Below are positions 37,310-60,220 of a stretch of 64,000 bases of DNA, piece after piece. The notes beneath the pieces are model-generated. The model made no database searches. It saw only the letters and a program-made list of their open reading frames with translations, and had not been told where the DNA came from. Within the stretch, counting starts at the first letter, position 1. Each line of letters starts with the position of its first letter. Location: assembly GCA_052033935.1 (NCBI GenBank), contig JBPOJE010000011.1, forward strand, positions 139,814 through 203,813. The letters are read 5' to 3'. Source of the DNA: Armatimonadota bacterium (GTDB lineage: Bacteria > Armatimonadota > UBA5829 > DSUL01). The position numbers and the translations under genes are program-made.

Positions 37310-37352
37310 CAAAAAAATCCGCTCCTCAGCCGTTCGAGAGGAAGCGGATTTC
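37310..37352 (-). terminator. Rho-independent terminator (minus strand) within the leader upstream of HNH-thuA-valS
   Basis: 13/14-bp stem aaatccgctcctc...gaggaagcggattt with one bulge. On the minus strand it is followed by TTTTTTT (plus-strand A-run 37311-37317). Confidence 0.6.
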
Positions 37353-37501
37353 ACGCGCGCACGTATGACTTGACAGATCTGTAATGCCGGAAGACCGACT
37401 GCTCGTAAACCTGAGATCTGCCCTGAGTGAGAGGCGCGCCCTGATTATGCTGCCTGCCAGCTCTATTCATACCAGCAAATGATTCCAGCGGAGGCGTAAT
37501 C

Positions 37502-37526
37502 AAAAACCCCGGCCGCAAGGCCGGGG
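37502..37526 (-). terminator. Early hairpin plus U-tract at the 5' end of the minus-strand leader transcript
   Basis: ccccggcc-gcaa-ggccgggg (GNRA-type tetraloop). On the minus strand it is followed by TTTTT. Sits about 8-30 nt after the predicted TSS. Confidence 0.5.
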
Positions 37527-37541
37527 CGCCCCCACGTATGC

Positions 37542-37571
37542 ATTATAGAAACCAGCAGGCCGCACTGTCAA
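37542..37571 (-). promoter_or_regulatory. Consensus sigma70-type promoter (TTGACA-N18-TATAAT) on the minus strand
   Basis: Minus-strand read: gctgtcTTGACAgtgcggcctgctggtttcTATAATgcatacg. Both hexamers are perfect. Confidence 0.55.
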
Positions 37572-37643
37572 CAAGACAGCCTCGGGGGTCTCCTTCGGAA
37601 ATGTGAAGCAAAGAACTCAGGTGCTTCAAGGGCGTACCGAGGA

Positions 37644-37816
37644 CCGATGTCCGGCATCTCCGCTGCCGGACGGGCGTCCGCGGGGTCTCTGACCCCTGAC
37701 CGTTGTGCACGCCGCGCACTGCCGTCTGCGAACGCCATCCCGGATGGCGAGGCTGTTTGCCTGAATGGACGCCCCGCAAGATCCTGCAGACGTAGTCTGC
37801 GCGAGCAGAGATCGCG
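37644..37816. repeat. Copy A of a ~170-nt structured intergenic repeat family
   Basis: Its first 48 nt (ccgatgtccggcatctccgctgccggacgggcgtccgcggggtctctg) are identical to 41222-41269. Its end (gcgcgagcagagatcgcg) is identical to the end of copy B. The interior is about 70 percent similar. Confidence 0.7.
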
Positions 37817-37854
37817 TAGGGTTCCCTCTTTTCGGGGGAAGTCCATAAAACCTA

Positions 37855-37884
37855 TTGACTCGCCGCATGCCCGTCTGGTAAGAT
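37855..37884 (+). promoter_or_regulatory. Sigma70-like promoter (TTGACT-N18-TAAGAT) driving the riboswitch leader
   Basis: cctaTTGACTcgccgcatgcccgtctggTAAGATgcc, about 25 nt upstream of the riboswitch-like element. Confidence 0.45.
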
Positions 37885-37909
37885 GCCCATAGACAACAAC
37901 TGAATACCG

Positions 37910-38098
37910 AACGCGGTCAGGTTTCCCGGAATATTCCGGGACTAAGAGCGAAGACGGTACAAATCCGTCGCGGGCCCGCCGCTGTAATCGGGGACGAAAC
38001 CGACGTTCTCCACTGCAATGCCGAAAGACTCAGAGGGCATTGTGGGAAGGGTTCGGAAGTAGGATGATCCGAGAGCCAGAAGACCTGCCTGACTGCGA
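37910..38098 (+). ncRNA. Cobalamin (AdoCbl) riboswitch-like leader
   Basis: Ordered conserved blocks: GGTacAAAtCC, CGCGGGcCCGCCgCTGTAAtcGGGG (versus consensus GGTGxAAxTCC...CCCGCxACTGT), the B12 box tCCACTG, GGGAAGG, and a 3' GCCAGAAGACCTGCC (compare btuB CCCGAAGACCTGCC). 5' GGTCAGG can pair with the 3' CCTGAC to form P1. Confidence 0.6.
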
Positions 38099-38125
38099 TT
38101 ATATTCTACATCTTCGGAGGCTGAG

Positions 38126-38977
38126 ATGTTGGAAGCAAGTGAAGCAATAGGCGTATTACGGGCTTCCGTCCAATCAATCCGAAATGGGCGAGGAGCCCGT
38201 TTCGGCATATATGGTTTCACGCTCATCGAACTGCTTGTGGTTATCGCAATCATCGCCATTCTCGCGGCGATATTGTCTCCTGTGTTTATATCTGCCAAGG
38301 AGCAGGCTCGTCAGGCAAAGTGCATCTCTAACCTCAAGCAGATTACTTCCGCATGGCTGATGTACGTCGACGACAACTCAGGCCGTGCCTGTCCTTCCTA
38401 TTACATATCATCAGACGGATGGCGCAGGGCTTGGGATTTCGATCTCAAGGACGTCAAGTCCGGCGGCAAGATCACCACTATTTGGAAATATGGGCTGCTC
38501 GGACCCTACGCCAAGAGCGGAGAGATCAAGAGCTGTCCTTCGTTTCATGGCGGCAAGTGGGACAGACCCTATACAGGCTATGCCTACAACGCAAGCTACA
38601 TAGGCGGGGACATCACAGTCGATGGCCAGGTTTACGTAGAACAGTGGACCGGCCGTCCTCACACAATAGCAACTTTAGGTCAGATACGGAACCCATCCAG
38701 AACTGCCGTTTTTGCAGATGGCGGCTTCGGCAATCCAGTGAGCGCCCACAACTACCTGCGAGCACCAAGTGACGAGTACTTCCAGGCAGGTACCGTCCAT
38801 TACAGGCACAACGGTGCGGCGGTAGTAGCCTATGCCGATGGGCACGTGTCCTTGGTGTGCGCCAAGTTCACTCACTATACGGACGTCCCGTGGTTGCAGA
38901 CCGGCAAGTCGGCTTTCGACTGCGCGCTTGATACCGGAGGTCTTTCCCAGGATGATTCTGCTTATGATTTGGACTGA
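38126..38977 (+). CDS. DUF1559 (H-X9-DG) prepilin-type N-terminal cleavage/methylation domain protein
   Basis: [55 protein letters not shown], and C-terminal [22 protein letters not shown] 5 nt upstream of the ATG. Confidence 0.85.
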
Positions 38978-39002
38978 TACAACACAAAGTAGGAGAACGC
39001 AA

Positions 39003-40466
39003 GTGAAGCAGAAAATGACGCGAGTATTGCTGCTCGCTATGGTTGCGCTAATTTGCGCGGTCGGGGCTCACGCCATGGACTGGTGGGCTTCGGAAGTGAT
39101 AGGCTCAAGCCGCCTCGGCAATAGCCCCTATGACGATCCGACGGCTACTCTCGGCAAGCCCACGGTCTGGATGAACAACTCCGGTGCTCCCGGCGATCCG
39201 GATCCCTGCGCGGTATCGATGGTCATCCCGGCTTGGAACGTAGGCTGGCCGAGTGGCGAAAAGCTGATTACCACCATTATGGCTAGGACATCCACACTTC
39301 CCGCTGGCTATGTCACGGTCAAGTACACTACCAGAATCTATGATGACCCTAGTAACTGGTACGGCAAGGACTTTATCGTATTCGGCAACAGCTTCTTTGC
39401 AGCGGCTGGGCATTACGTGTATTCGGACTCGAATATGGAGGATGTTGTTATAGACTCCATTGATGGCGGAGGCGGGTGGTGGGAACCGATGCCGGTCAGT
39501 GTCAGCCAGGACAACATTACCTGGTATTCCTACACCAATGGACCCTATGCCGATGACTACGCCCCTACACAAGCCCTCGCCTGGGACTGGGTTGAAAACC
39601 ACTGGCTTAAGAACAGTGCGGGTGTTGACGTGGAACTTGATTTCACACGGCCGGTGACCCCGGGATACGGCAAAGCTAGCTTCAACGGGAAGACTGCGGC
39701 GGCAGGCATTGATATGTACGGCGGATCTGGCGGCGGGACTGCCTTTGATCTTGCCGAGTTACCCCTTCCCATAGATCCAGTTACGGGCCGCAAGTGGATC
39801 CAGTACATCAGGATCGATGGCGCGATGGGTGAGGTCGATGCTTTCGCCCGAGTGAGCCACCAGATTGATGAGATGTCCATCGGCGCCGTGAAGAAGCTGC
39901 CGGACGGGACTAGGGTGGTTCTCAAGGAATCTGTTGTGTCGGCTGCCACCTACGAGGTCGGGAGGTATTGTTATGTCGAGCACCCGGACAGGTCGGGCGG
40001 CATCAGGGTCATTGGTCGGGTTCTTGACCGCGATAAACACTACATTATCTACGGCGACATGGACACCATGGGAGATGAGCGTGTGATCCTCGCCACGGCA
40101 ATTACAGCCATTGAGGATAACACAGATCCGGTTGAGCCGGTTGGCATGCCAAACAGAAACATCTACGGCCACGGCCTGAACACGGCTGGACTTCTTGTGC
40201 AGACTTGGGGAAGGGCGCTCTCTGTTGACCAGGCTGACAAGTCTTTTGTGATTGACGATGGCTCCGGCAAGCCGATCAGGTGCATCGCCCCCAGAAGTAC
40301 AGAGGCAGCCGAGCCGAACAACGGCGTGGCGGTTCATCCGGATTTCAGTCCGCCAGCACAGGGCCATTTTGTAAGAATTACGGGCATCAGCTCGCTTGAG
40401 CGCAATGCTGAGGATGAGGTGGTGCCCGTGATCAGACTTAGGGACATCTCAAGCGTTGTCGAATAG
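39003..40466 (+). CDS. Secreted hypothetical protein ending in the conserved C-terminal module
   Basis: AGGAGA 6 nt upstream of GTG 39003 (ATG alternative at 39015). Signal peptide MTRVLLLAMVALICAVGAHA. C-terminus CYVEHPDRSGGIRV...GLNTAGLLVQTWGRA...FVIDDGSG...ISSVVE. Confidence 0.8.
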   Translation: MKQKMTRVLLLAMVALICAVGAHAMDWWASEVIGSSRLGNSPYDDPTATLGKPTVWMNNSGAPGDPDPCAVSMVIPAWNVGWPSGEKLITTIMARTSTLPAGYVTVKYTTRIYDDPSNWYGKDFIVFGNSFFAAAGHYVYSDSNMEDVVIDSIDGGGGWWEPMPVSVSQDNITWYSYTNGPYADDYAPTQALAWDWVENHWLKNSAGVDVELDFTRPVTPGYGKASFNGKTAAAGIDMYGGSGGGTAFDLAELPLPIDPVTGRKWIQYIRIDGAMGEVDAFARVSHQIDEMSIGAVKKLPDGTRVVLKESVVSAATYEVGRYCYVEHPDRSGGIRVIGRVLDRDKHYIIYGDMDTMGDERVILATAITAIEDNTDPVEPVGMPNRNIYGHGLNTAGLLVQTWGRALSVDQADKSFVIDDGSGKPIRCIAPRSTEAAEPNNGVAVHPDFSPPAQGHFVRITGISSLERNAEDEVVPVIRLRDISSVVE

Positions 40467-40508
40467 CACAGTCCCTATGAACCAACACTCTAAAAGAGGA
40501 AAGGACAA

Positions 40509-41162
40509 ATGAAGAGAACCATTATTCTCGCACTGCTGATGTTCGCCCTGGGCACCTCGATGGCATCGGCAGCCCCGTACGCTTTCAACTCGGCATCGGG
40601 CAAGACAGCCTGGATCGAGGTGGATGCCTGGTCAGGCAGCGGAGCAAACGAATCGATTCTGGTCGTGGACTGGAACGTTATGGGCGGCCCGTATGCGACC
40701 GAATCACACGCGTTTGGCTTCCGCTGGGACGGCACGGCGTACGTGTCGGATATGCTCAACGCATTTCACAACGCCGGTGTATTCACCCTAAGCTCGGGCT
40801 ATGGCGGGGCGTTTCTTATGGACATCGTCTACGATGACGGTATTGACCACCACACGCACGCTGATGAAGAGGGAAGCTGGAATCTCGCCAGCACTGACGA
40901 TCCCTACGCCCAATGGGGCGCAATGAGCTCTGACGGGACCAAGCTAGGTGAATGGGATGCCAATCCGGCCGGCTATAACCAAGAGTTGCTTGCGAATGGT
41001 CAGCTCGAAGGCATCAACGCGATTTCGTGGTTCGGCGGGGATCCCAACGCGTATACGTTGGATGTTCCTTTTGCCGCTGCCGTGCCTGAGCCGGGTTCGC
41101 TGGCGGGGCTTCTGGGAGGACTTGTTTCGATTAGTGGCCTTGTGTTGCGCAGTCGAAAGTAG
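40509..41162 (+). CDS. PEP-CTERM sorting-domain protein
   Basis: Signal peptide MKRTIILALLMFALGTSMASA. C-terminal VPEPGSLAGLLGGLVSISGLVLRSRK is a textbook PEP-CTERM (VPEP, TM, RSRK). Strong RBS AGAGGAAAGGA. Confidence 0.85.
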   Translation: MKRTIILALLMFALGTSMASAAPYAFNSASGKTAWIEVDAWSGSGANESILVVDWNVMGGPYATESHAFGFRWDGTAYVSDMLNAFHNAGVFTLSSGYGGAFLMDIVYDDGIDHHTHADEEGSWNLASTDDPYAQWGAMSSDGTKLGEWDANPAGYNQELLANGQLEGINAISWFGGDPNAYTLDVPFAAAVPEPGSLAGLLGGLVSISGLVLRSRK

Positions 41163-41181
41163 AGAGTCCTATTCGCACGCT

Positions 41182-41212
41182 GGACGGTCTCATCACGAGG
41201 CCGTCCAGCCAC
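41182..41212 (+). terminator. Hairpin after the PEP-CTERM gene (no U-tract)
   Basis: ctggacgg-N13-ccgtccag, an 8-bp stem. Confidence 0.3.
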
Positions 41213-41221
41213 AAGGCCCCA

Positions 41222-41390
41222 CCGATGTCCGGCATCTCCGCTGCCGGACGGGCGTCCGCGGGGTCTCTGGCCCCTGGCCGTTGCGCAGGCCGGCGCCGTT
41301 CCGGATCGGCGGGGCTGCTTGCCTGTATGGACGCCTCGCAATAAGGAGCAAAGCCCCTACAGACATGGCCGCGCGAGCAGAGATCGCGCG
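41222..41390. repeat. Copy B of the structured intergenic repeat
   Basis: See copy A. Lies in the convergent gap between the PEP-CTERM gene and the 41409-41795 gene. Confidence 0.7.
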
Positions 41391-41408
41391 ACATCGTGCA
41401 GAGACTGG

Positions 41409-41893: not shown

Positions 41894-42512
41894 GCCCCGA
41901 AGCGCCGCTGCGCCGGGCCTTCGCTAACGGCCGGACTCATCGCGTGCCAACGGCAACCACAAGACGCCCAGAAGGGGCTATGCTTCTCTGTGTGCGAAGG
42001 CGGGTGACGTGCCTCACACGCCCACGCTTTCAGGCCCGCTTTGGCGAGACGATGACGCCATCGAACACGGCCGCGTTCGACTGAACCCGGCACCCGCGGC
42101 CCACCACGCAGCGCTCGATGCAGGTGTCGCGCAGAACCGCCGCGTCCGGCCACAGAATGCTCTGGCGGACAGTGGCGCCCGATTCGACCACGCAGCCATC
42201 GGCGAGCACGGAATACTCCTGCACCTGCGCTCCGGCCTCGATGCGGCAGTTGTTGCCGATGACGACCGGATACTCGATCTTCGCGGTCGGGTCTATTTCG
42301 GCATTCTCCCCCATCCAGACGTACTTGCGGGATTCTTTGTAAGGGAGATTGAGTGTAATGCGCCCCTCCAGCACGTCGTAGTGTGTCTGGCGGTACGCCG
42401 TCAGGTTGCCGATGTCGCGCCAGTAGCTGGACGTGAGGTGTCCGTACAGCCGCATCTTGCGCTCGATCAACAGGGGCAGAAGGTCTTTGCCGAATCCGTA
42501 CATCACGCCCTT
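41894..42512. repeat. Segmental duplicate (copy 1) of 47195-47912
   Basis: Near-identical DNA over ~620 bp, with a ~95-bp indel relative to copy 2. Includes the 3' third of an NDP-sugar pyrophosphorylase gene plus its downstream region. Confidence 0.8.
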
Positions 42513-42520: not shown

Positions 42521-42727
42521 TGCCGGAGGTGTTCGGCGCGGCGGACGGGGTTCCCTGCGCGGTGCATTGGTCATGGCGCGATAGGAAAGGCGGCCGCGCC
42601 CACGAGCGTTGGCTACAGGAATCGGCTATAGTAGTGGTCAGGCGCAGGCTGGGCCATCCGGACCTTGCTGAGGCACAGACCGGATTGGGACAGCCCGCAG
42701 GTCGTTGGCGTGATCGGGAGGTCAACT

Positions 42728-45700
42728 ATGCGCGTCCGGTCTTACTTTGTCGCTGCTCTTCCGCTCTTCCTGTTCGCTGGTGCACGCGTCGGCGTCGCTG
42801 CGCCCATCGCGACCGCGACCGACGTCTCCGCGGCGCTGGCTGCGCCGGACGGGGCCGCTGTGTCACTGCAGACGGTCCTCGTGGATAAGGCCGCACGCGG
42901 ATACATCGTCGTCAGGGCACCGTGGTCGGCAGACGAGCGCGTGGTGGTGGTCGCGGCCGTCAACGTGAAGCGGTGGCAGCCCGTGGCTGTGAAGGGCACC
43001 CTCACCACCCTCGTCAATGGCATCAGGGCTGTCCGGGCGGACGAGGTCTTGGTCTACACCGACGCAGAGGGAGCGCCCGTCATTTGTCCGATTCCTCCAC
43101 CCATGACCAAAGGCGCCATTGCCGCATCCTTTTCTACTGCAGCGGCAGCCATCAAGCTTGATGAGCTCGCGATGCTCGCGGAGGATGAGACGCCGCCAGT
43201 GCCCGACCCCACACCGCCGGCTGTGGAACCCCAGTATATCGTTGGCACCATCAGTGAAGCTCTCGCGCTTGGTGAGGGCAGTACGGTCAGGGTCAACGGC
43301 AAGCCCATAGCGTCAACAGGCGACGACCCGACGTACGGCGCTTACTTCGTCGCTGGCGAAGACGGCAGTTCTGACACTCTCAAAACCTTCAGCTCCGCTG
43401 CAGCCTCGGCCGAAATGCGAGCCGCGGGCCTTACCGGAACCATAGCGATTCAACCGGGAGTCGGTAAAGTCCTCAGTACGGACAGCGGCCCTGGCAACCC
43501 GCCAGAGGGCTTCCACGGCCTTGCGGAACTGGCTGTAGCCGTAGATGTGTTCGGAGCAAAGACGAAACCGGACGACATGGAGGTGCAACTGCTCGGAAAG
43601 GTGGTGAGCCGTGCCTTCCCGAGCGAGGACGTGTTCTACATCCAGGAGCCAGACCGCGCATGCGGCATCAAGGTGGTCGATGCCATCAATGCAGCCTCAG
43701 TTGCCCCGGGCGATCTGGTCAGTGTCACGGGCTTCATATCAACGAACGCGTCAGGCGAGCGTTACATCGAGGCGTCGACCACAGAAATCACCGGCTCGAT
43801 AGAGCCACCGGTCCCCACAGCGATGATCAACCGCACTCTTGGAGGCGGCGATTTCCACTATAACGCCACCACCGGGGCCGGGCAGAAAGGCATCTCTGGA
43901 GTCGCCTACGGGCTGAACAATGTCGGCCTGCTCGTCCGCACGACCGGCAAGGTGACAGCCATCGGGAGTGATTACTTCTACGTTGACGATGGGAGTAACC
44001 TCAGCGACGGGGCGGGCCACACCGGCGTCCGTGTGGCCAACGTTCCTGCAACCACAGTGTCGGTGGGCGATTACGTTGGCATCGTCGGCATATCTGGTTT
44101 GGAGGGTACCAACCTCGCCTGCCGCCGCGTGCTCCGACCCGCAGACACGGCAGATGTTGAGACCCTCGATCCGCTCGCTCCGGCGAACCTCACCGCCAGT
44201 GCGGGCAACACCAGCGCGAGTCTGGTCTGGGACGCGGCGCCGGTGAGTTCGTATGCAGTTTTCCGGGGGGCCAGCCAGAGTGGCTCATTCACGCGAATCG
44301 CCACCGCAACGACTACTGCTTACGTAGATTCAGGCTTGACGAACGGCACAACCTATTGGTACAAGGTGGCGAGTATCAGCCTCGGCGAAGGTACGCCGAC
44401 GGCCGCTGTATCGGCAACGCCGACGGGGGCGGCGCCAATGGCAACAATGAGCAACTTAGCCGTAAATGACGGCACGCTTTCAGTGGATTACACCGCCACC
44501 GCAGGCTCTAGCGGCGACGAGCCGTCCATGGTTGCCTTTGGGTTGGATGGAGCACTAATATGGGCGGACACACCAGGCTTGCACAGCCACTTTGTGCTCG
44601 ACACGACGCAGTTCGCTAACGGCCCGCATCGGCTCTCTATAACCGCCATTTCGGCGTCCGCAGCCGGTGTGCTCACCTCAACCACGGCCGTGCAGGACGT
44701 CGCTTTCGACAACTTCGCATCGTCGTTTACCATACCGGAGGTAGCCTACGAGACAGCGGCTATTTCAACCGTTTTCGCAGCCCCAACGAGTTGGACCTTG
44801 CGTTTCCTGTCCGGTTCGCAGGAACTTGCGAGCACATCCGGCACGGGCACAGTTGTTTGCTACACTTGGGACAGCTCGCAGGCGTACGGAAACGTGACGG
44901 TCGAGTTGAGCTACGATGAGCCGGGTCCACTTGCTGCCCAGAAAGTGCGGAATGGCAGGACGTACGTCACCCACGGGGTGTACCCGCCAACCCCGCTTGC
45001 CTGGGCAGCTTATTATCCCGCGGATGCTGTCTCGGGGCAGGAGCTTTGGTACCGGCAGGATTACAACGCGGCCGCATCGAGTCTTCTGGATCATTTTGGC
45101 GTGCCGCCAGGCAATGAATGGCGCGGCCGCATTGCCGGCTGCGGCGGTTGGGATACAGTGATCGACCCGGTGCTCGTTGAGCCGGATTTCTGGCCGGGGA
45201 TACTGTTCTTCTCCGGACATGGGGAGTACGTCGACCGGGATAAGTCCATGCTCTACCAAGGGGCCGTTGCCGGCAGCTTCACTGGGGGGCGGACCTGCGG
45301 GCTCACAGCCTTGACGCCGTTCGGCACTCCGAGCGGCCCCATTTATATGCAGGCGGCTGGGCCAGCCCTCGGCAACGGAGGCATCTTCGACCCGCTTACC
45401 GGGCGCGTGGCGATGACGATGGTACACAAGCGGCTTGAGTTCGTCTTTTTCAATACGTGCTTCTCAGGCGGGCGTTCAAGCAGTAGCCGTCTTCCCCTCC
45501 TTCCGTTGGCTTTCGGCCTGCCGCGGCAGCGAGTAAGCGGCCTGGGCGCGGCCTACCTGGGCATTGTGGACACGGCGGAAAACGACGACGCGACCCTGTT
45601 CAACCAGACGTTTTGGAACTACCTCGAGCAGGGCTACACCATTGCCAGGGCCGCGTTCCATGCATCCCTGGCAACAGGAAAAAGGGTGAAGTATCGCATA

Positions 45701-45730
45701 GGTGGAGATCCGGGGCTGAGGCTATGGTGA
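42728..45730 (+). CDS. Large secreted protein: internal copy of the conserved module, Fn3 domain, C-terminal clan-CD (C25/caspase-like) peptidase-like domain
   Basis: GGGAGG RBS, signal peptide MRVRSYFVAALPLFLFAGARVGVAAP. Module FYIQEPDRACGIKV...GLNNVGLLVRTTGKV...FYVDDGSNLSDGAG. Fn3 segment LVWDAAPVSSYAVFRG...TTYWYKVASIS. His and Cys motifs ILFFSGHGEY and FVFFNTCFSGG. Confidence 0.8.
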   Translation: MRVRSYFVAALPLFLFAGARVGVAAPIATATDVSAALAAPDGAAVSLQTVLVDKAARGYIVVRAPWSADERVVVVAAVNVKRWQPVAVKGTLTTLVNGIRAVRADEVLVYTDAEGAPVICPIPPPMTKGAIAASFSTAAAAIKLDELAMLAEDETPPVPDPTPPAVEPQYIVGTISEALALGEGSTVRVNGKPIASTGDDPTYGAYFVAGEDGSSDTLKTFSSAAASAEMRAAGLTGTIAIQPGVGKVLSTDSGPGNPPEGFHGLAELAVAVDVFGAKTKPDDMEVQLLGKVVSRAFPSEDVFYIQEPDRACGIKVVDAINAASVAPGDLVSVTGFISTNASGERYIEASTTEITGSIEPPVPTAMINRTLGGGDFHYNATTGAGQKGISGVAYGLNNVGLLVRTTGKVTAIGSDYFYVDDGSNLSDGAGHTGVRVANVPATTVSVGDYVGIVGISGLEGTNLACRRVLRPADTADVETLDPLAPANLTASAGNTSASLVWDAAPVSSYAVFRGASQSGSFTRIATATTTAYVDSGLTNGTTYWYKVASISLGEGTPTAAVSATPTGAAPMATMSNLAVNDGTLSVDYTATAGSSGDEPSMVAFGLDGALIWADTPGLHSHFVLDTTQFANGPHRLSITAISASAAGVLTSTTAVQDVAFDNFASSFTIPEVAYETAAISTVFAAPTSWTLRFLSGSQELASTSGTGTVVCYTWDSSQAYGNVTVELSYDEPGPLAAQKVRNGRTYVTHGVYPPTPLAWAAYYPADAVSGQELWYRQDYNAAASSLLDHFGVPPGNEWRGRIAGCGGWDTVIDPVLVEPDFWPGILFFSGHGEYVDRDKSMLYQGAVAGSFTGGRTCGLTALTPFGTPSGPIYMQAAGPALGNGGIFDPLTGRVAMTMVHKRLEFVFFNTCFSGGRSSSSRLPLLPLAFGLPRQRVSGLGAAYLGIVDTAENDDATLFNQTFWNYLEQGYTIARAAFHASLATGKRVKYRIGGDPGLRLW

Positions 45731-46275
45731 GGCCCTCGGTTGCCTTTGTGGCTGGGATTCTGGCCGGCGCCCTTCTGGCTGGAGGTGCAGCATTGCTGCT
45801 CAATCGAGAGTCCACCGTGGGTGCCAGGAGCGCACCGTGGCGTCCCGGCCTGGCAGAGCTGCGCGACATGTTCACGGCCGATGTTCGCGCAGGGCGGACC
45901 CCGGACGAGGTTGTCATTATCGTCAAGCAGCAGTTCGCAACGGACGCGTATTGGACTCAAAAGCCGGCGGTCGGCTATATCGTCAGCCAAGGGCAGAAGT
46001 GGTCACTGCGGGCAGCGGTGACACAACTCTCTGAGCCTGTCGAAAGGCTGGACTTCGAAGGCCGGACTTACCCGCTGCAGCGCCCCAGCCAAGAGGCACG
46101 GGTCCGGTTCAGAGCTCCAAGGGCCCCGGCTGGGCCCGCAATCCTGAGGATTAAGGTGGAGGTTATGGTGGGGCCCACGCCGGCTCTGGCTAAGGCGCCT
46201 CTACTTGTCCCGCTGCGCCTGTCGGGCCTTCAGGCGACCGTGGCCCCAGATGGCGCCATTCGGCTTGCGCTGTGA
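45724..46275 (+). CDS. Membrane-anchored hypothetical protein
   Basis: The ATG overlaps the upstream stop (ATGGTGA). TM anchor MVRPSVAFVAGILAGALLAGGAALLL. Confidence 0.6.
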   Translation: MVRPSVAFVAGILAGALLAGGAALLLNRESTVGARSAPWRPGLAELRDMFTADVRAGRTPDEVVIIVKQQFATDAYWTQKPAVGYIVSQGQKWSLRAAVTQLSEPVERLDFEGRTYPLQRPSQEARVRFRAPRAPAGPAILRIKVEVMVGPTPALAKAPLLVPLRLSGLQATVAPDGAIRLAL

Positions 46276-46310
46276 TCATGGGCTGTGGCTGACAAGCTGT
46301 TACCATCCAC

Positions 46311-46452
46311 CATGTGCCGGCATCTCTGCTGCCAGCACGACGCCCGCGGGAGCTGTGCTTCCCATGCTGCTGGCGGGCCATATGCAGCGCGAGGATGCGG
46401 AGCAGAGCACCGGCAGACATCGCTCGCGGGAGCAGAGATCCCGCGAGATCGG
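46311..46452. repeat. Copy C (diverged) of the structured intergenic repeat
   Basis: catgtgccggcatctctgctgccagcacgacgcccgcggg... and ...cgcgggagcagagatcccgcg match the two ends of copies A and B. Confidence 0.5.
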
Positions 46453-46516
46453 GGGGCTTGGGCAAACCTGGTGTGCTGCCTTGGCGTTGCTGTCCTGGTG
46501 CGGAGCTGTTTGCGTG

Positions 46517-47203
46517 CTTCGGGGCTTCTTTTCGCCCCGAAGCTCATCCTGATCCCGCGTCATAGCATCTCCTCCGTGGAGTCGATCCGCAATGGGCCGC
46601 TGCCGCAATCATACCAGGAGGCGCTGGAGAAGAGCCAATCCTCTGGAGTCTGGCACAGCCCCCGCCGCACCGGGTTGCTGTGCATATAGGCCAGCTTCGC
46701 CAGAAGGGCCTCGTCCGTAGTCACAGGCAGGCCGTGCCCGCGCTCCTTCCACACCCGCACCCGGCTCTTGCCCCGCGCAAGGCTGCGAGAAAGCTCCAGC
46801 CACTCTGCTGCCTGGGCGTTGCCACGCTCTGCCGCACGGGCCGTCATTGCCGTGATATCGCCCGAGAAGGTGCGCAGGCTCTGCACCAGGAACTTCCGAA
46901 CGCTGTCTGCCGACGGCCCCCACAGCAGGATGTGGAAGTGCTCAGGCATCACCACGTAGCCCAGAATTCGGACGCCAAAGCGCTCGCGACGGCTGTCCCA
47001 GATGGAGAGCAGCAGCGCGGCTGCGCGAGGGCTCCTCAGCACAGGAGTCCACTCGACGATGGTGCTGGTCCAGAACCAGCGCGCGCCGTCCTGCCACAGA
47101 TTGTGATGGCGCGACATGACGCAATCTTACCAGCCGGCCATATCCAGCGCAAGCACTCGGCTCGGTCTGGCTTCTGGCTTCGGGGCGAAAAGAAGCCCCG
47201 AAG
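46517..47203 (-). mobile_element. REP-RAYT unit: Y1/HUH transposase gene bracketed by inverted palindromic hairpins
   Basis: cttcggggc-TTCTTTTC-gccccgaag at 46517-46542 and cttcggggc-GAAAAGAA-gccccgaag at 47178-47203. The stems are identical and the loops are reverse-complementary. Confidence 0.65.
46560..47117 (-). CDS. REP-associated tyrosine transposase (RAYT) / IS200-like Y1 HUH transposase
   Basis: HUH motif VMPEHFHILLW and catalytic Tyr context KLAYMHSNPVRRGL. 185 aa. Confidence 0.8.
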   Translation of the reverse strand: MSRHHNLWQDGARWFWTSTIVEWTPVLRSPRAAALLLSIWDSRRERFGVRILGYVVMPEHFHILLWGPSADSVRKFLVQSLRTFSGDITAMTARAAERGNAQAAEWLELSRSLARGKSRVRVWKERGHGLPVTTDEALLAKLAYMHSNPVRRGLCQTPEDWLFSSASWYDCGSGPLRIDSTEEML

Positions 47204-47912
47204 CACCGAAAGCACCGAAAACCGAGCCTTCGCTGACGGCCGGACTCACCGCCCGACTCCGGTGGCCACGAGACGCCCACGAGGGGCTATGCTACAGGTT
47301 CTTCTCTGTGCTCCGGACTGCCACCACGCATGTTTCCGGGCTTCGGCCCGTCGTTCCAGAGAACTCCGAGCCGAAGCACAGTCCCGTTGTGATGGCGCGT
47401 GAGATGCCTCACGCGCCCGCGCTTTCACGCCCGCTTCGGGGAGACGATGACACCGTCGAACACGGCCGCGTTCGACTGAACCCGGCACCCGCGGCCCACC
47501 ACGCAGCGCTCGATGCAGGTGTCGCGCAGAACCGCCGCCTCCGGCCACAGGATGCTCTGGCGAACAGTGGCGCCCGATTCGACCACGCAGCCATCGGCGA
47601 GCACGGAATACTCCTGCACGTGCGCCCCGGCCTCGATGCGGCAGTTGTTGCCGATGACGACCGGATACTCAATCTTCGCGGTCGGGTCTATTTCGACATT
47701 CTCCCCCATCCAGACGTACTTGCGCGCCTCTTTGTAAGGGAGATTGAGCGTAATGCGCCCGTCCAGCACGTCGTAGTGCGTCTGGCGGTATTCCGTCAGA
47801 TTGCCGATATCGCGCCAGTAGCTGGACGTGAGGTGTCCGTACAGCCGCATCTTGCGCTCGATCAACAGGGGCAGAAGGTCTTTGCCGAATCCGTACATCA
47901 CGCCCTTCGGGA
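47195..47912. repeat. Segmental duplicate (copy 2) of 41894-42512
   Basis: See copy 1. Covers the 3' part of the intact pyrophosphorylase gene and its downstream sequence up to the RAYT-proximal REP. Confidence 0.8.
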
Positions 47913-58294: not shown

Positions 58295-60220
58295 CTAGAA
58301 CTTGATCTCCGGCTTGCTCATCGGCTTGTGACACCCGTTGCACATGTCGGCGGTGTGACAGAGCGCGCATGAATGCTGGTTGTCCTTGGCCTCTTTCGCA
58401 TGCCCCATCAAATAGGCATCGTTATGGTTCGAGGGCTTAATGCCGCCGGTCGAGTGGCACTTCGTGCAGTCGGGACGAGCATGGCAGTAGGCGCAGTTCG
58501 ACTTGCCCGACGCCGCCGACTTGCCGTGCACCGCCAGCCATGTTGCGCCGTGCGACGGCGGCTTCTTCGTCTTGTGGCAATCGTCGCAGAACTTGCTGGA
58601 GGTGTGGCAGGTCGCGCAACTCTGCCTAGCGGCGCTGCCGTGCGTTGTCAGGAAGTCCTTCGCCTTGTGCGACGCGGGCCTTGCGCTCGTATGGCAGGCC
58701 TGGCAGTAGCGCTCCTGGTGACACCTGAGGCATGAGGCCTTGTTCTTCCGCGCATCTTTTCCATGCCCCTGGGCGGCCCATCCGGACGCGTTGTGAGTGG
58801 CCGGACGCGAGCCCTTGTGGCAGTCATCGCAGTACTTCTGCGAATGGCACTTCGTGCAGAGCCGCGGCGTTCGTCCCGGCGTAATGTGGGCCTTGCGATA
58901 GTTGGACGGATGTGGCATCTGCATGCCGTGGCAGTCTGAACACTGCCTGGCCGTGTGGCAGGTGAGACAGCGCTCCTGCGCGGCCAGCGATACCGGCCCG
59001 TGCCGCCGGGTCCAGTCGGTCTTGTGCGACCGCGGGGCGGCTTTCTGATGGCAGGTGTTGCAGAACTGCTGCTTGTGGCAGGTCTGGCACTGCGAAGACA
59101 CGGCCTTCCCGTGCGCCCGCTCCCAGTCTAATGCTTTGTGATTCTCCGGCTCCTGATTGTTGTGGCAGGACTCGCAGAACTTGAGCGTGTGGCAGGTCTG
59201 GCATCGGGCGATGTCTTTGCCAGCGGTCCTGGCATGCGTTTTGCCCCAACCCGGCGGGTGCGGCTGATTGGTCTTGTGGCAGCCGGTGCAGAACTGCTGC
59301 TTGTGGCAGGCGCGGCAGGATGCTTCTCCCTTGCTCGCAACGTCCGTACCGTGCTTCTCCCTGTAGCCCGGCGGATGCACCTTCTCTTTGCTGTGGCATC
59401 TGGCGCAGGTATTGTTCTTCAGACCGCCGGGATGGCAGAGTTCACAGCCCTTGGGGTTGCGCTTCTGCTCGGCGGCGTGCACGTCTATGAAGGACGGCTC
59501 GTGCGGGTTGACGGTCTTGTGGCAGTTCTCGCAGTAGCTGGCCTGATGGCAGCGCAGGCACTCTTCGGGCTTCTTGCCAACCTCCGCCTTGTGCCCTTCC
59601 TTCCACTCTTTGCTGAAGGCCGCCGGCTTTCGCCCTTTCAGCACCTCGTGGCAAAGCGAGCAGTCGTTCGGCGCCTGCTTGCCGTCGTGACAGGTGGTGC
59701 ACATTGCCATCGTGGGGACGTTGATGGCCGCCGCGTCCGGGCCATGCACAACCCCCTTGTGGCAATACGCGCAGGGGATGTTGCGGTCCCAGTGCTTTTG
59801 ATGGCTAATTTTGATGCCGTGATAAACAACCCATTCGCGTGTTGTCTTGTGGCACGCGCGGCAGTTCGCGTCGGGAACGCTGGCCTGAATGGCGTCGTTC
59901 TTCGCGCGAGCGGCGTGCCGGGCAATAATCCGCGCCGAGCCAAGTCTCGTCCGGAAGAAGCGCTGGCTAGCGGGAGCCACGTGGCAACCACCGCACGAGA
60001 CGTCCTTATGCCCGGAGACCTTCCACATGGCGTAGGCGGCGTCCTTGTCGTGGCAGGCCGCGCAGGTGCGCATCTGAACCGCCGGGGCAACCGCAAGCGC
60101 GGCAACCGCGGCGAGGACGGCAAAGAGCAGGACGCAACCGAGCGGCAGGCTCCGGCCCTTCCACGGAAGCAGAATGCGCGCGCCTCTCCATTTCAGCGGG
60201 TTCAGGCAGCCGGGCTTCAC
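58295..60220 (-). CDS. Periplasmic multiheme cytochrome c with 28 CxxCH motifs (doubled-CxxCH repeats)
   Basis: 28 CxxCH sites counted by eye, mostly as CxxCHxxx(F/Y)CxxCH pairs. GTG start overlapping the upstream stop (GTGA). Signal peptide. Confidence 0.9.
   Translation of the reverse strand: MKPGCLNPLKWRGARILLPWKGRSLPLGCVLLFAVLAAVAALAVAPAVQMRTCAACHDKDAAYAMWKVSGHKDVSCGGCHVAPASQRFFRTRLGSARIIARHAARAKNDAIQASVPDANCRACHKTTREWVVYHGIKISHQKHWDRNIPCAYCHKGVVHGPDAAAINVPTMAMCTTCHDGKQAPNDCSLCHEVLKGRKPAAFSKEWKEGHKAEVGKKPEECLRCHQASYCENCHKTVNPHEPSFIDVHAAEQKRNPKGCELCHPGGLKNNTCARCHSKEKVHPPGYREKHGTDVASKGEASCRACHKQQFCTGCHKTNQPHPPGWGKTHARTAGKDIARCQTCHTLKFCESCHNNQEPENHKALDWERAHGKAVSSQCQTCHKQQFCNTCHQKAAPRSHKTDWTRRHGPVSLAAQERCLTCHTARQCSDCHGMQMPHPSNYRKAHITPGRTPRLCTKCHSQKYCDDCHKGSRPATHNASGWAAQGHGKDARKNKASCLRCHQERYCQACHTSARPASHKAKDFLTTHGSAARQSCATCHTSSKFCDDCHKTKKPPSHGATWLAVHGKSAASGKSNCAYCHARPDCTKCHSTGGIKPSNHNDAYLMGHAKEAKDNQHSCALCHTADMCNGCHKPMSKPEIKF

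Follow-up and report, generated by a model that had tools for sequence, protein, structure and literature searches.

A small intergenic repeat with inverted terminal hairpins in Armatimonadota, possibly a DNA element built like a REP doublet

Introduction

A stretch of 64,000 nucleotides from an Armatimonadota bacterium (contig JBPOJE010000011.1, positions 139,814 to 203,813 of the forward strand; hereafter the window) contains a short, hairpin-rich intergenic sequence in three similar copies. The initial annotation took it for either a structured RNA or a DNA element recognised by a protein. The question raised by this locus is what such a repeat is: a transcribed RNA, a hairpin that is read as DNA, a recombination site that delimits a gene block, or a leftover of local rearrangement.

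Results

Extent and identity of the copies

37644-37822, plus strand: copy A (element to 37816/22; nhmmer match 37642-37822, E 8e-43)
41222-41396, plus strand: copy B, full length (nhmmer match 41220-41398, E 5e-49)
46311-46452, plus strand: copy C, shorter, with a diverged spacer

The proposal of a three-copy intergenic repeat was borne out, since these are true copies, with exact blocks shared by A and B and with both ends kept in C. On the 5' side, copies A and B share a run of 49 identical nucleotides (37643-37691 and 41221-41269; the block had been given as 48 nt), and across 72 nt of that side they show 94% identity. At the 3' side they share exactly the 18-nt block GCGCGAGCAGAGATCGCG (37799-37816 in A and 41371-41388 in B), which carries two changes in copy C (46426-46443). 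Copy C was correctly described as retaining both ends; these are kept at ~82%, the interior is shorter, and blastn aligned B with C at 83% identity at each end (E 1e-7 and 8e-5). The interiors of A and B are related yet diverged, again as first reported, with indels of 11 and 17 nt (19 nt for the latter in the MAFFT alignment), and the spacer of C is 40-60 nt shorter than that of A and B. The element is non-coding and measures roughly 145-205 bases. The numbers of matches to the block patterns expected by chance, estimated from dinucleotide shuffles, were 0.00-0.20. A fourth copy was not detected within the 64-kb window by exact and mismatch patterns, repeat finding, a hairpin-and-loop regular expression allowing two loop mismatches, or nhmmer --max with the family profile.

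Copies elsewhere

A strict 5' pattern run against 185,579 representative genomes matched only the locus of copy C, in the metagenome-assembled genome AnMBR.bin211 (JAXGLP010000002.1, Armatimonadota), where the ortholog of copy C is 98.6% identical, and in one 3.5-kb contig. A metagenome scan (241 million records) returned the copy C locus again and one new full-length copy, termed copy D, which is identical in three contigs (L004, L018 and L020), with genes for an FGE-sulfatase and for MTHFR on its two sides. The remaining 14 metagenome matches were chance matches inside genes, and no match was found in the viral contigs, phage genomes and plasmids searched. In several sequencing runs, Logan unitigs break off 28-29 nt inside the repeat, on the HNH side as well as on the PEP-CTERM side, and one unitig spans exactly A to B, which indicates the same arrangement in those samples; the 49-nt identical block interrupts short-read assemblies at A and B. 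As far as these searches see, the family is rare and confined to a narrow group of Armatimonadota. The flanks of copies A, B, C and D are four unrelated sequences. A degenerate copy upstream of the junction in JAXGLP010000002.1 (CCGATGTC plus a CCGGCAGA-GCA-TCTGCCGG hairpin) was considered and dropped, the alignment being unconvincing.

The surroundings of copy C gave several further observations. Window positions 42576-46455 (3.9 kb, comprising a 1021-aa gene, a 220-aa gene and copy C) are 97.6% identical to AnMBR.bin211, and both flanks are wholly different; this may reflect close relatives with rearrangements or an exchanged segment. For the HNH protein encoded near this segment the best non-self homolog is only 78% identical. 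The suggestion that copy C forms the exact limit of the shared segment was rejected, as homology with indels reaches ~46510, before the left REP of the neighbouring RAYT unit. The 3.5-kb contig (CALKWL010000035.1) is binned as 'uncultured Gammaproteobacteria' and carries the copy C locus at 99% identity to the window; its label is probably a binning error.

The true end of copy B is at 41396, beyond the earlier limit of 41390, and in both B and D the terminal GACATCG is the reverse complement of the 5' CGATGTC (in B it occupies 41390-41396, its first G being the last stem base). The 3' end of copy A is truncated after 37816, without the terminal CGACATCG and without an internal GGRGC hairpin. 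In every pair of copies the homology ends sharply at the element limits. The 5' part of A equals that of B, and the 3' part of B is nearer to D than to A. This mosaic signal argues for gene conversion and against a recent simple duplication, and conversion between two neighbouring direct copies best accounts for the 49 + 18 nt in which A and B are identical next to interiors that have diverged.

Terminal hairpins and their covariation

37649-37671, plus strand: 5' terminal hairpin of A, GTCCGGCA-TCTCCGC-TGCCGGAC, preceded by CGAT
37682-37696, plus strand: internal hairpin of A, GGGGTC-TCT-GACCCC, kept in all copies, with two compensated pairs
37800-37816, plus strand: 3' terminal hairpin of A, CGCGA-GCAGAGA-TCGCG, its loop complementary to the loop of the 5' hairpin
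41227-41249, plus strand: 5' terminal hairpin of B, identical to that of A
41370-41396, plus strand: 3' terminal hairpin of B, CGCGCGA-GCAGAGA-TCGCGCG, plus ACATCG
46314-46338, plus strand: 5' terminal hairpin of C, GTGCCGGCA-TCTCTGC-TGCCAGCAC, with an extra compensated G:C pair and one C.A mismatch
46423-46447, plus strand: 3' terminal hairpin of C, CTCGCGGGA-GCAGAGA-TCCCGCGAG, with a compensated stem change relative to A, B and D

The two ends of the element are mirror-image (inverted) hairpins whose 7-nt loops are complementary (TCTCYGC and GCAGAGA). On the top strand the 5' end reads cgat-GTCCGGCA-TCTC(T/C)GC-TGCCGGAC. The bottom-strand sequence of the 3' end is cgat-GTCGCGCGA-TCTCTGC-TCGCGCGAC in D; B and C have equivalents of it, and that of A is shortened. 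Common to both ends are the outer CGATGTC, the core A-TCTCTGC-T (ATCTCTGCT) and GAC. Each end has a stem of its own, CCGGCA on the 5' side and CGCGCGA or CGCGGGA on the 3' side, and each stem is kept across the copies. The units are 23-25 nt long, and the stems that enclose the 7-nt loop have 8-9 bp, or 5 bp where A is truncated. The tetranucleotide CGAT stands directly 5' of the palindrome in five of the eight units, namely the 5' units of A, B and D and the 3' units of C and D; the exceptions are the 3' unit of B, where it is offset by 2 nt (CGATGT), the 5' unit of C (CCAT) and the 3' unit of A (CCTA). Between the conserved terminal units lies a spacer of ~95-150 nt that varies in sequence and length and in which small hairpins are mostly kept.

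An alignment of A, B, C, the ortholog of C and D (five sequences, four of them independent) supported the structure of local hairpins: 95.9% of its cells are paired, compared with 32-50% when the partners are slid. Nine pairs have changed on both sides, and most of the compensated changes come from the lineage of C. The internal hairpin GGRGC-ARA-GCYCC is intact in D and in the ortholog of C; it has mismatches in B and C, and A has lost it by deletion. Two hairpins had been drawn in the 5' block; CCGGCA-TCTCCGC-TGCCGG is conserved, and GACG-GGC-GTC is not kept in C or D. A long-range closing helix between CGCGgggTCTCTG and CAGAGAtCGCG, which had been thought to enclose the element, did not hold up: it is 88% paired, shows no covariation and is broken at three of its ten pairs in C. 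The same columns pair locally, in GGGGTC-TCT-GACCCC and CGCGA-GCAGAGA-TCGCG, with compensatory changes, and the helix was abandoned for these hairpins. Only B and D keep the outer 7-bp pairing CGATGTC/GACATCG, in which 70% of the cells are paired. The copies folded better than shuffled sequences on either strand, with z values of -0.95 to -3.0 on the plus strand and -2.6 to -3.8 on the minus strand, and the family profile matches copy C on the opposite strand too (E 8e-4). The compensated stems indicate that hairpin formation matters, and they do not distinguish between RNA and single-stranded DNA.

Gene surroundings and signals of coding or transcription

Left of copy A, minus strand: ValRS, ThuA and HNH endonuclease genes
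Between A and B, plus strand: cobalamin riboswitch, DUF1559/prepilin-like gene, 544-aa gene, PEP-CTERM gene
Right of copy B, minus strand: 128-aa membrane-like ORF, then a truncated 3' fragment of an NTP-transferase gene
Left of copy C, plus strand: 1021-aa gene, 220-aa gene
46516-47204, right of copy C: REP-RAYT-REP unit (RAYT gene 46560-47117, minus strand, 185 aa)
Right of the REP-RAYT-REP unit, minus strand: intact NTP-transferase gene

Copy A lies between divergent promoters, one a minus-strand sigma-70 consensus (37571 to 37542, belonging to a leader of the HNH gene) and the other the plus-strand promoter of the riboswitch (37855-37884). Copy B is situated between the stop codons of the PEP-CTERM gene (41162, plus) and of the 128-aa ORF (41409, minus). 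Copy C begins 36 nt past the stop codon of the 220-aa ORF and adjoins the RAYT unit, as had been noted, with a gap of 64 nt before the left REP. Copies B, C and D are each placed between convergent genes.

The leader next to copy A is a feature of its own. It occupies 37311-37571 on the minus strand, directly upstream of the McrA-like HNH endonuclease gene, and is conserved; it comprises a perfect TTGACA-18-TATAAT promoter, a predicted transcript of ~225 nt with the conserved block GAGTTCGTCTTCCGGCATT, and a terminator (hairpin plus T7) ~40 nt before the ATG. The same layout was found at L045:7685-7931 and L048:7685-7955, before HNH homologs of 76-78% identity in unrelated neighbourhoods, and it has no Rfam match. 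We regard it as a candidate leader/attenuator or small RNA associated with this HNH family. A link between the HNH gene and the repeat was considered and rejected: the HNH family is very widespread (2685 homologs at E <= 1e-30), the neighbourhoods are unrelated, and no copy was found near the homologs.

Signals of coding were not detected. The minus-strand ORFs had been dismissed as artefacts of the repeat, rightly so, because the indels between A and B do not keep the reading frames, and six-frame pseudo-protein profiles of the conserved block, searched against 5.8 billion proteins, returned only ORFs over the known copies. Signals of transcription were equally absent, in that no promoter or intrinsic terminator consensus is present in or beside any copy, and with Rfam 15 only the cobalamin riboswitch reaches the gathering score in the window, with nothing meaningful for A and B at E <= 10. 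The alignment contains seven plus-strand G.U cells and seven C.A cells, the latter being G.U on the minus strand. This balance, together with the folding of both strands and the lack of promoter, terminator and Rfam match, singles out no one transcribed strand. The initial reading is supported in so far as this is a sharply bounded, hairpin-rich repeat without coding function, with conserved ends and an interior that has diverged; nothing indicates that it is transcribed.

These observations bear on the main rival explanation, in which the repeat is a structured RNA (a 3'-UTR stabiliser or a small RNA) made by read-through, with the 5' and 3' hairpins docking by 7-bp kissing loops and with CGATGTC/GACATCG as a closing stem. 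Four hairpins with compensated changes would suit such an RNA, as would the loops TCTCTGC and GCAGAGA, which are fully complementary in C and D and complementary at six of seven positions in A and B; B, C and D are sense-oriented just downstream of plus-strand genes, and copy A folds with a z of -3. However, besides the missing promoters, terminators and Rfam matches and the wobble cells that show no strand preference, copy A precedes the riboswitch promoter, in a gap between divergent promoters that is not expected to receive read-through. Within the kissing loops the sole substitution, T to C in A and B, has no compensating partner, the closing stem is incompletely paired across the copies, and the interior GGRGC hairpin is disrupted in B and C and missing from A. 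We consider a structured RNA unlikely on this evidence.

The block between copies A and B

Copies A and B are direct repeats that flank the riboswitch operon, as the initial annotation stated, with starts 3578 nt apart. The flanked block consists of the cobalamin riboswitch (37902-38106; Rfam, 116.9 bits) and three genes. For a B12 riboswitch the cargo of the operon (37902-41162) is unusual: a protein with a DUF1559/prepilin-type N-terminus, a 544-aa protein without family match and a PEP-CTERM protein. The interval 37817-41221 is the lowest-GC stretch of ~3.3-3.4 kb in the window (0.555 versus 0.628), and the region left of 42576 is absent at the copy C locus of the related AnMBR.bin211. On account of its GC content and of this absence, the operon looks acquired. 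The low-GC tract runs past B to ~41900, which places B inside the tract and not at its edge, and no transposase or recombinase gene other than the RAYT gene is present in the 64 kb. The probability that the A-B operon is a mobilised cassette appears low.

A related explanation takes the terminal hairpins as core sites of a site-specific recombinase, with A and B delimiting an excisable, horizontally acquired riboswitch operon. Each end does present 8-9-bp inverted arms around an asymmetric 7-bp spacer, as in lox/dif-type sites, the directly repeated A and B have identical ends and enclose the window's lowest-GC ~3.4 kb, and everything left of 42576 is missing from this locus in the related genome. 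Set against this are the position of B within the low-GC block, the lack, in the 64 kb, of any gene other than RAYT for an integrase, invertase or transposase, the lack of hybrid-arm sites or flipped spacers among the four copies, ends without the integron attC core (GTTRRRY/RYYYAAC), and copy D, which stands alone between housekeeping genes. We give this explanation a slim chance. Slimmer odds attach to the idea that the repeat would be the recognition module of an undescribed Armatimonadota system for cassette exchange or structured RNA, in which hairpins with complementary loops would mobilise or regulate gene blocks such as the A-B operon and the enzyme would be encoded elsewhere in the genome.

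The neighbouring RAYT unit and local duplication

The RAYT protein scores 78.7 bits against NCBIfam REP_Tyr_transpos (cut-off 80) and has no Pfam match at E <= 0.01. Its gene is flanked by inverted REPs, GCTTCGGGGC-TTCTTTTC-GCCCCGAAGC and GCTTCGGGGC-GAAAAGAA-GCCCCGAAGC (type GCTTCGGGGC-N8-GCCCCGAAGC). The examined RAYT homologs with identities of 71%, 55% and 43% have this same REP type (CTTCGGGGC) around them; another homolog at 55% has a related GCTTCGG-type REP. The layout of this unit resembles that of the repeat, in that a hairpin with an asymmetric loop (TTCTTTTC and GAAAAGAA in the RAYT unit) is followed by an interior and then by an inverted hairpin. Unlike the repeat, the RAYT unit has a 185-aa gene inside and identical stems, and the sequence of the repeat is unrelated to it. 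The neighbouring RAYT was considered as the mobilising enzyme and rejected, as its clade keeps a different REP; because that REP is conserved around the RAYT gene and its homologs, it is unlikely that this clade acts on the repeat.

Two other features were noticed around these units. The RAYT unit lies at a breakpoint of synteny with AnMBR.bin211, homology ending ~5 nt before the left REP and being absent past the right REP. Just after the truncated end of copy A, at 37822-37840, there is a hairpin TTCCC-TCTTTTCGG-GGGAA whose loop CTTTTCG resembles the REP loop TTCTTTTC; it may be a decayed RAYT-associated REP or a product of chance.

A segmental duplication was detected between 41913-42512 and 47222-47907, in which 72 nt of non-coding sequence are 81% identical and 520 coding nt are 94% identical. 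It covers the 3' part of the NTP-transferase/hexapeptide gene and the sequence downstream, of which 42030-42512 (minus strand) is the truncated fragment, and 18 nt separate the right REP of the RAYT unit from the beginning of the source copy. Could the copies of the repeat be inert leftovers of such local duplication or rearrangement, with palindromes that were merely inherited? The three copies in the window do share one strand and a span of 9 kb, the duplication just described (81-94%) falls in that region, and B and C are found a few hundred bases past the 3' ends of the two NTP-transferase copies. However, leftovers of this kind would not account for homology that stops sharply at the element ends in all copy pairs, nor for copy D at an unrelated locus in a different metagenomic population, and ends far better conserved than the interior, with compensated stems, are not expected of neutral decay. 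We therefore consider leftovers of duplication distinctly unlikely. The repeats, together with the segmental duplication, the RAYT unit and the low-GC operon, mark a rearrangement-prone stretch. A further set of repeats in the window, 37-46-nt direct repeats at 58559-59560 (TGTGGCAG...TCGCAGAAC), falls within the gene of a 641-aa multihaem cytochrome on the minus strand; these are repeated CXXCH haem-binding modules and not a non-coding repeat.

Comparison with other classes of elements

Miniature inverted-repeat elements (MITEs) such as the Correia elements of Neisseria and the ERIC sequences of enterobacteria are 100-200 nt long, have inverted termini, are intergenic and can fold when transcribed. 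By description, the repeat is like them in size, in its intergenic sites and in the short inverted termini CGATGTC/GACATCG of B and D. It is unlike them in that its termini are interrupted palindromes and not simple inverted repeats, and in its very low copy number. No target-site duplication was present in the flanks of A, B, C and D, and neither the window nor 277 kb of related loci yielded a transposase gene with such ends.

Integron attC sites and the Vibrio VCRs have conserved ends and a variable interior, keep one orientation along an array and stand at the 3' ends of gene blocks; attC sites carry R''/R' cores, RYYYAAC and GTTRRRY, with intI/attI nearby. The repeat, again compared by description, shares the conserved ends, the variable interior, the common orientation and the position 3' of gene blocks. 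In contrast to attC sites, its ends are CCGATGTC and GACATCG(G), without these cores; the 'cassettes' would be 3.4-4.9 kb long with a promoter of their own, and each copy forms several local hairpins and not one long bulged hairpin. The window contains no tyrosine recombinase gene (integrase) and no attI. An invertible promoter element was not indicated either, since no promoter consensus lies inside the copies, all spacers have the same orientation and no invertase gene is present in the window. A template/variable repeat pair of a diversity-generating retroelement was also rejected, as the differences between A and B show no adenine specificity and no gene for a reverse transcriptase was detected.

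Discussion

The reading that we prefer, and to which we assign a probability of roughly 0.4, is that the repeat is a small, lineage-restricted family of non-coding DNA elements built like a REP doublet (REPIN/BIME) and recognised as hairpin DNA. REPs are palindromes of 20-50 nt that follow a conserved tetranucleotide and are often grouped in BIMEs (Corneloup et al. 2021, PMC8266576), and REPs and BIMEs are associated with RAYT proteins, also called TnpA-REP (Ton-Hoang et al. 2012, PMC3333891). In REPINs two inverted REPs enclose a variable, hairpin-forming spacer of ~71-110 bp, no two being alike, and the orientation of a REP can be read from the centre of its palindrome (Bertels and Rainey 2011, PMC3337134). 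The Armatimonadota repeat has the same plan, with two inverted palindromic units of 23-25 nt, an orientation given by an asymmetric centre and a variable spacer that forms hairpins. Like REPINs and BIMEs it is intergenic, often between convergent genes, and has no coding capacity. REP/RAYT biology is present in the lineage, as a RAYT gene with its own inverted REPs stands beside copy C, and we count this in favour of a REP-doublet-like element.

There are also differences. The tetranucleotide is CGAT and not GTAG, the usual one of REPs. REPINs pair two REPs of one group (PMC3337134), whereas the two units of the repeat have different stems and so do not form one REP group. No RAYT gene flanked by the units of the repeat was found in the sequences examined. 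The copy number is low as well, with one to three copies visible per genome (three in the 64 kb). A genome normally contains tens to hundreds of REPs and REPINs. The element is accordingly not classed as a REPIN; what we propose is that it works like a REP doublet.

By analogy with REP/RAYT and IS200/IS605 systems, the terminal palindromes would fold once the DNA becomes single-stranded, and single-stranded DNA would be the active form. A strand-transferase of the HUH/Y1 type would then read the shape of the hairpin stem, the loop and the 5' tetranucleotide, and by cutting and rejoining beside the hairpins it would bring the doublet, copied or moved, to gene-poor sites, for example the gaps between convergent genes. 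An HUH enzyme would thus be expected to act on the element, and the element would be, or would have been, mobile. No sign of movement was seen in the form of a target duplication, an empty site or a presence/absence polymorphism, and copy C has been in place since the divergence of its two lineages. Since the copies are so few, the element may now be an inactive relic.

The finding is modest, given the likeness to the paired REP repeats of other bacteria, and it opens no long-standing question. We found no description of REP-type repeats in Armatimonadota in the searchable literature. If the repeat is indeed a REP-doublet-like element, it would extend the REPIN/BIME type of architecture to Armatimonadota, and its unusual form, which combines a low copy number, unlike stems and CGAT, would make it a useful test of the features that are read by a hairpin-recognising enzyme.
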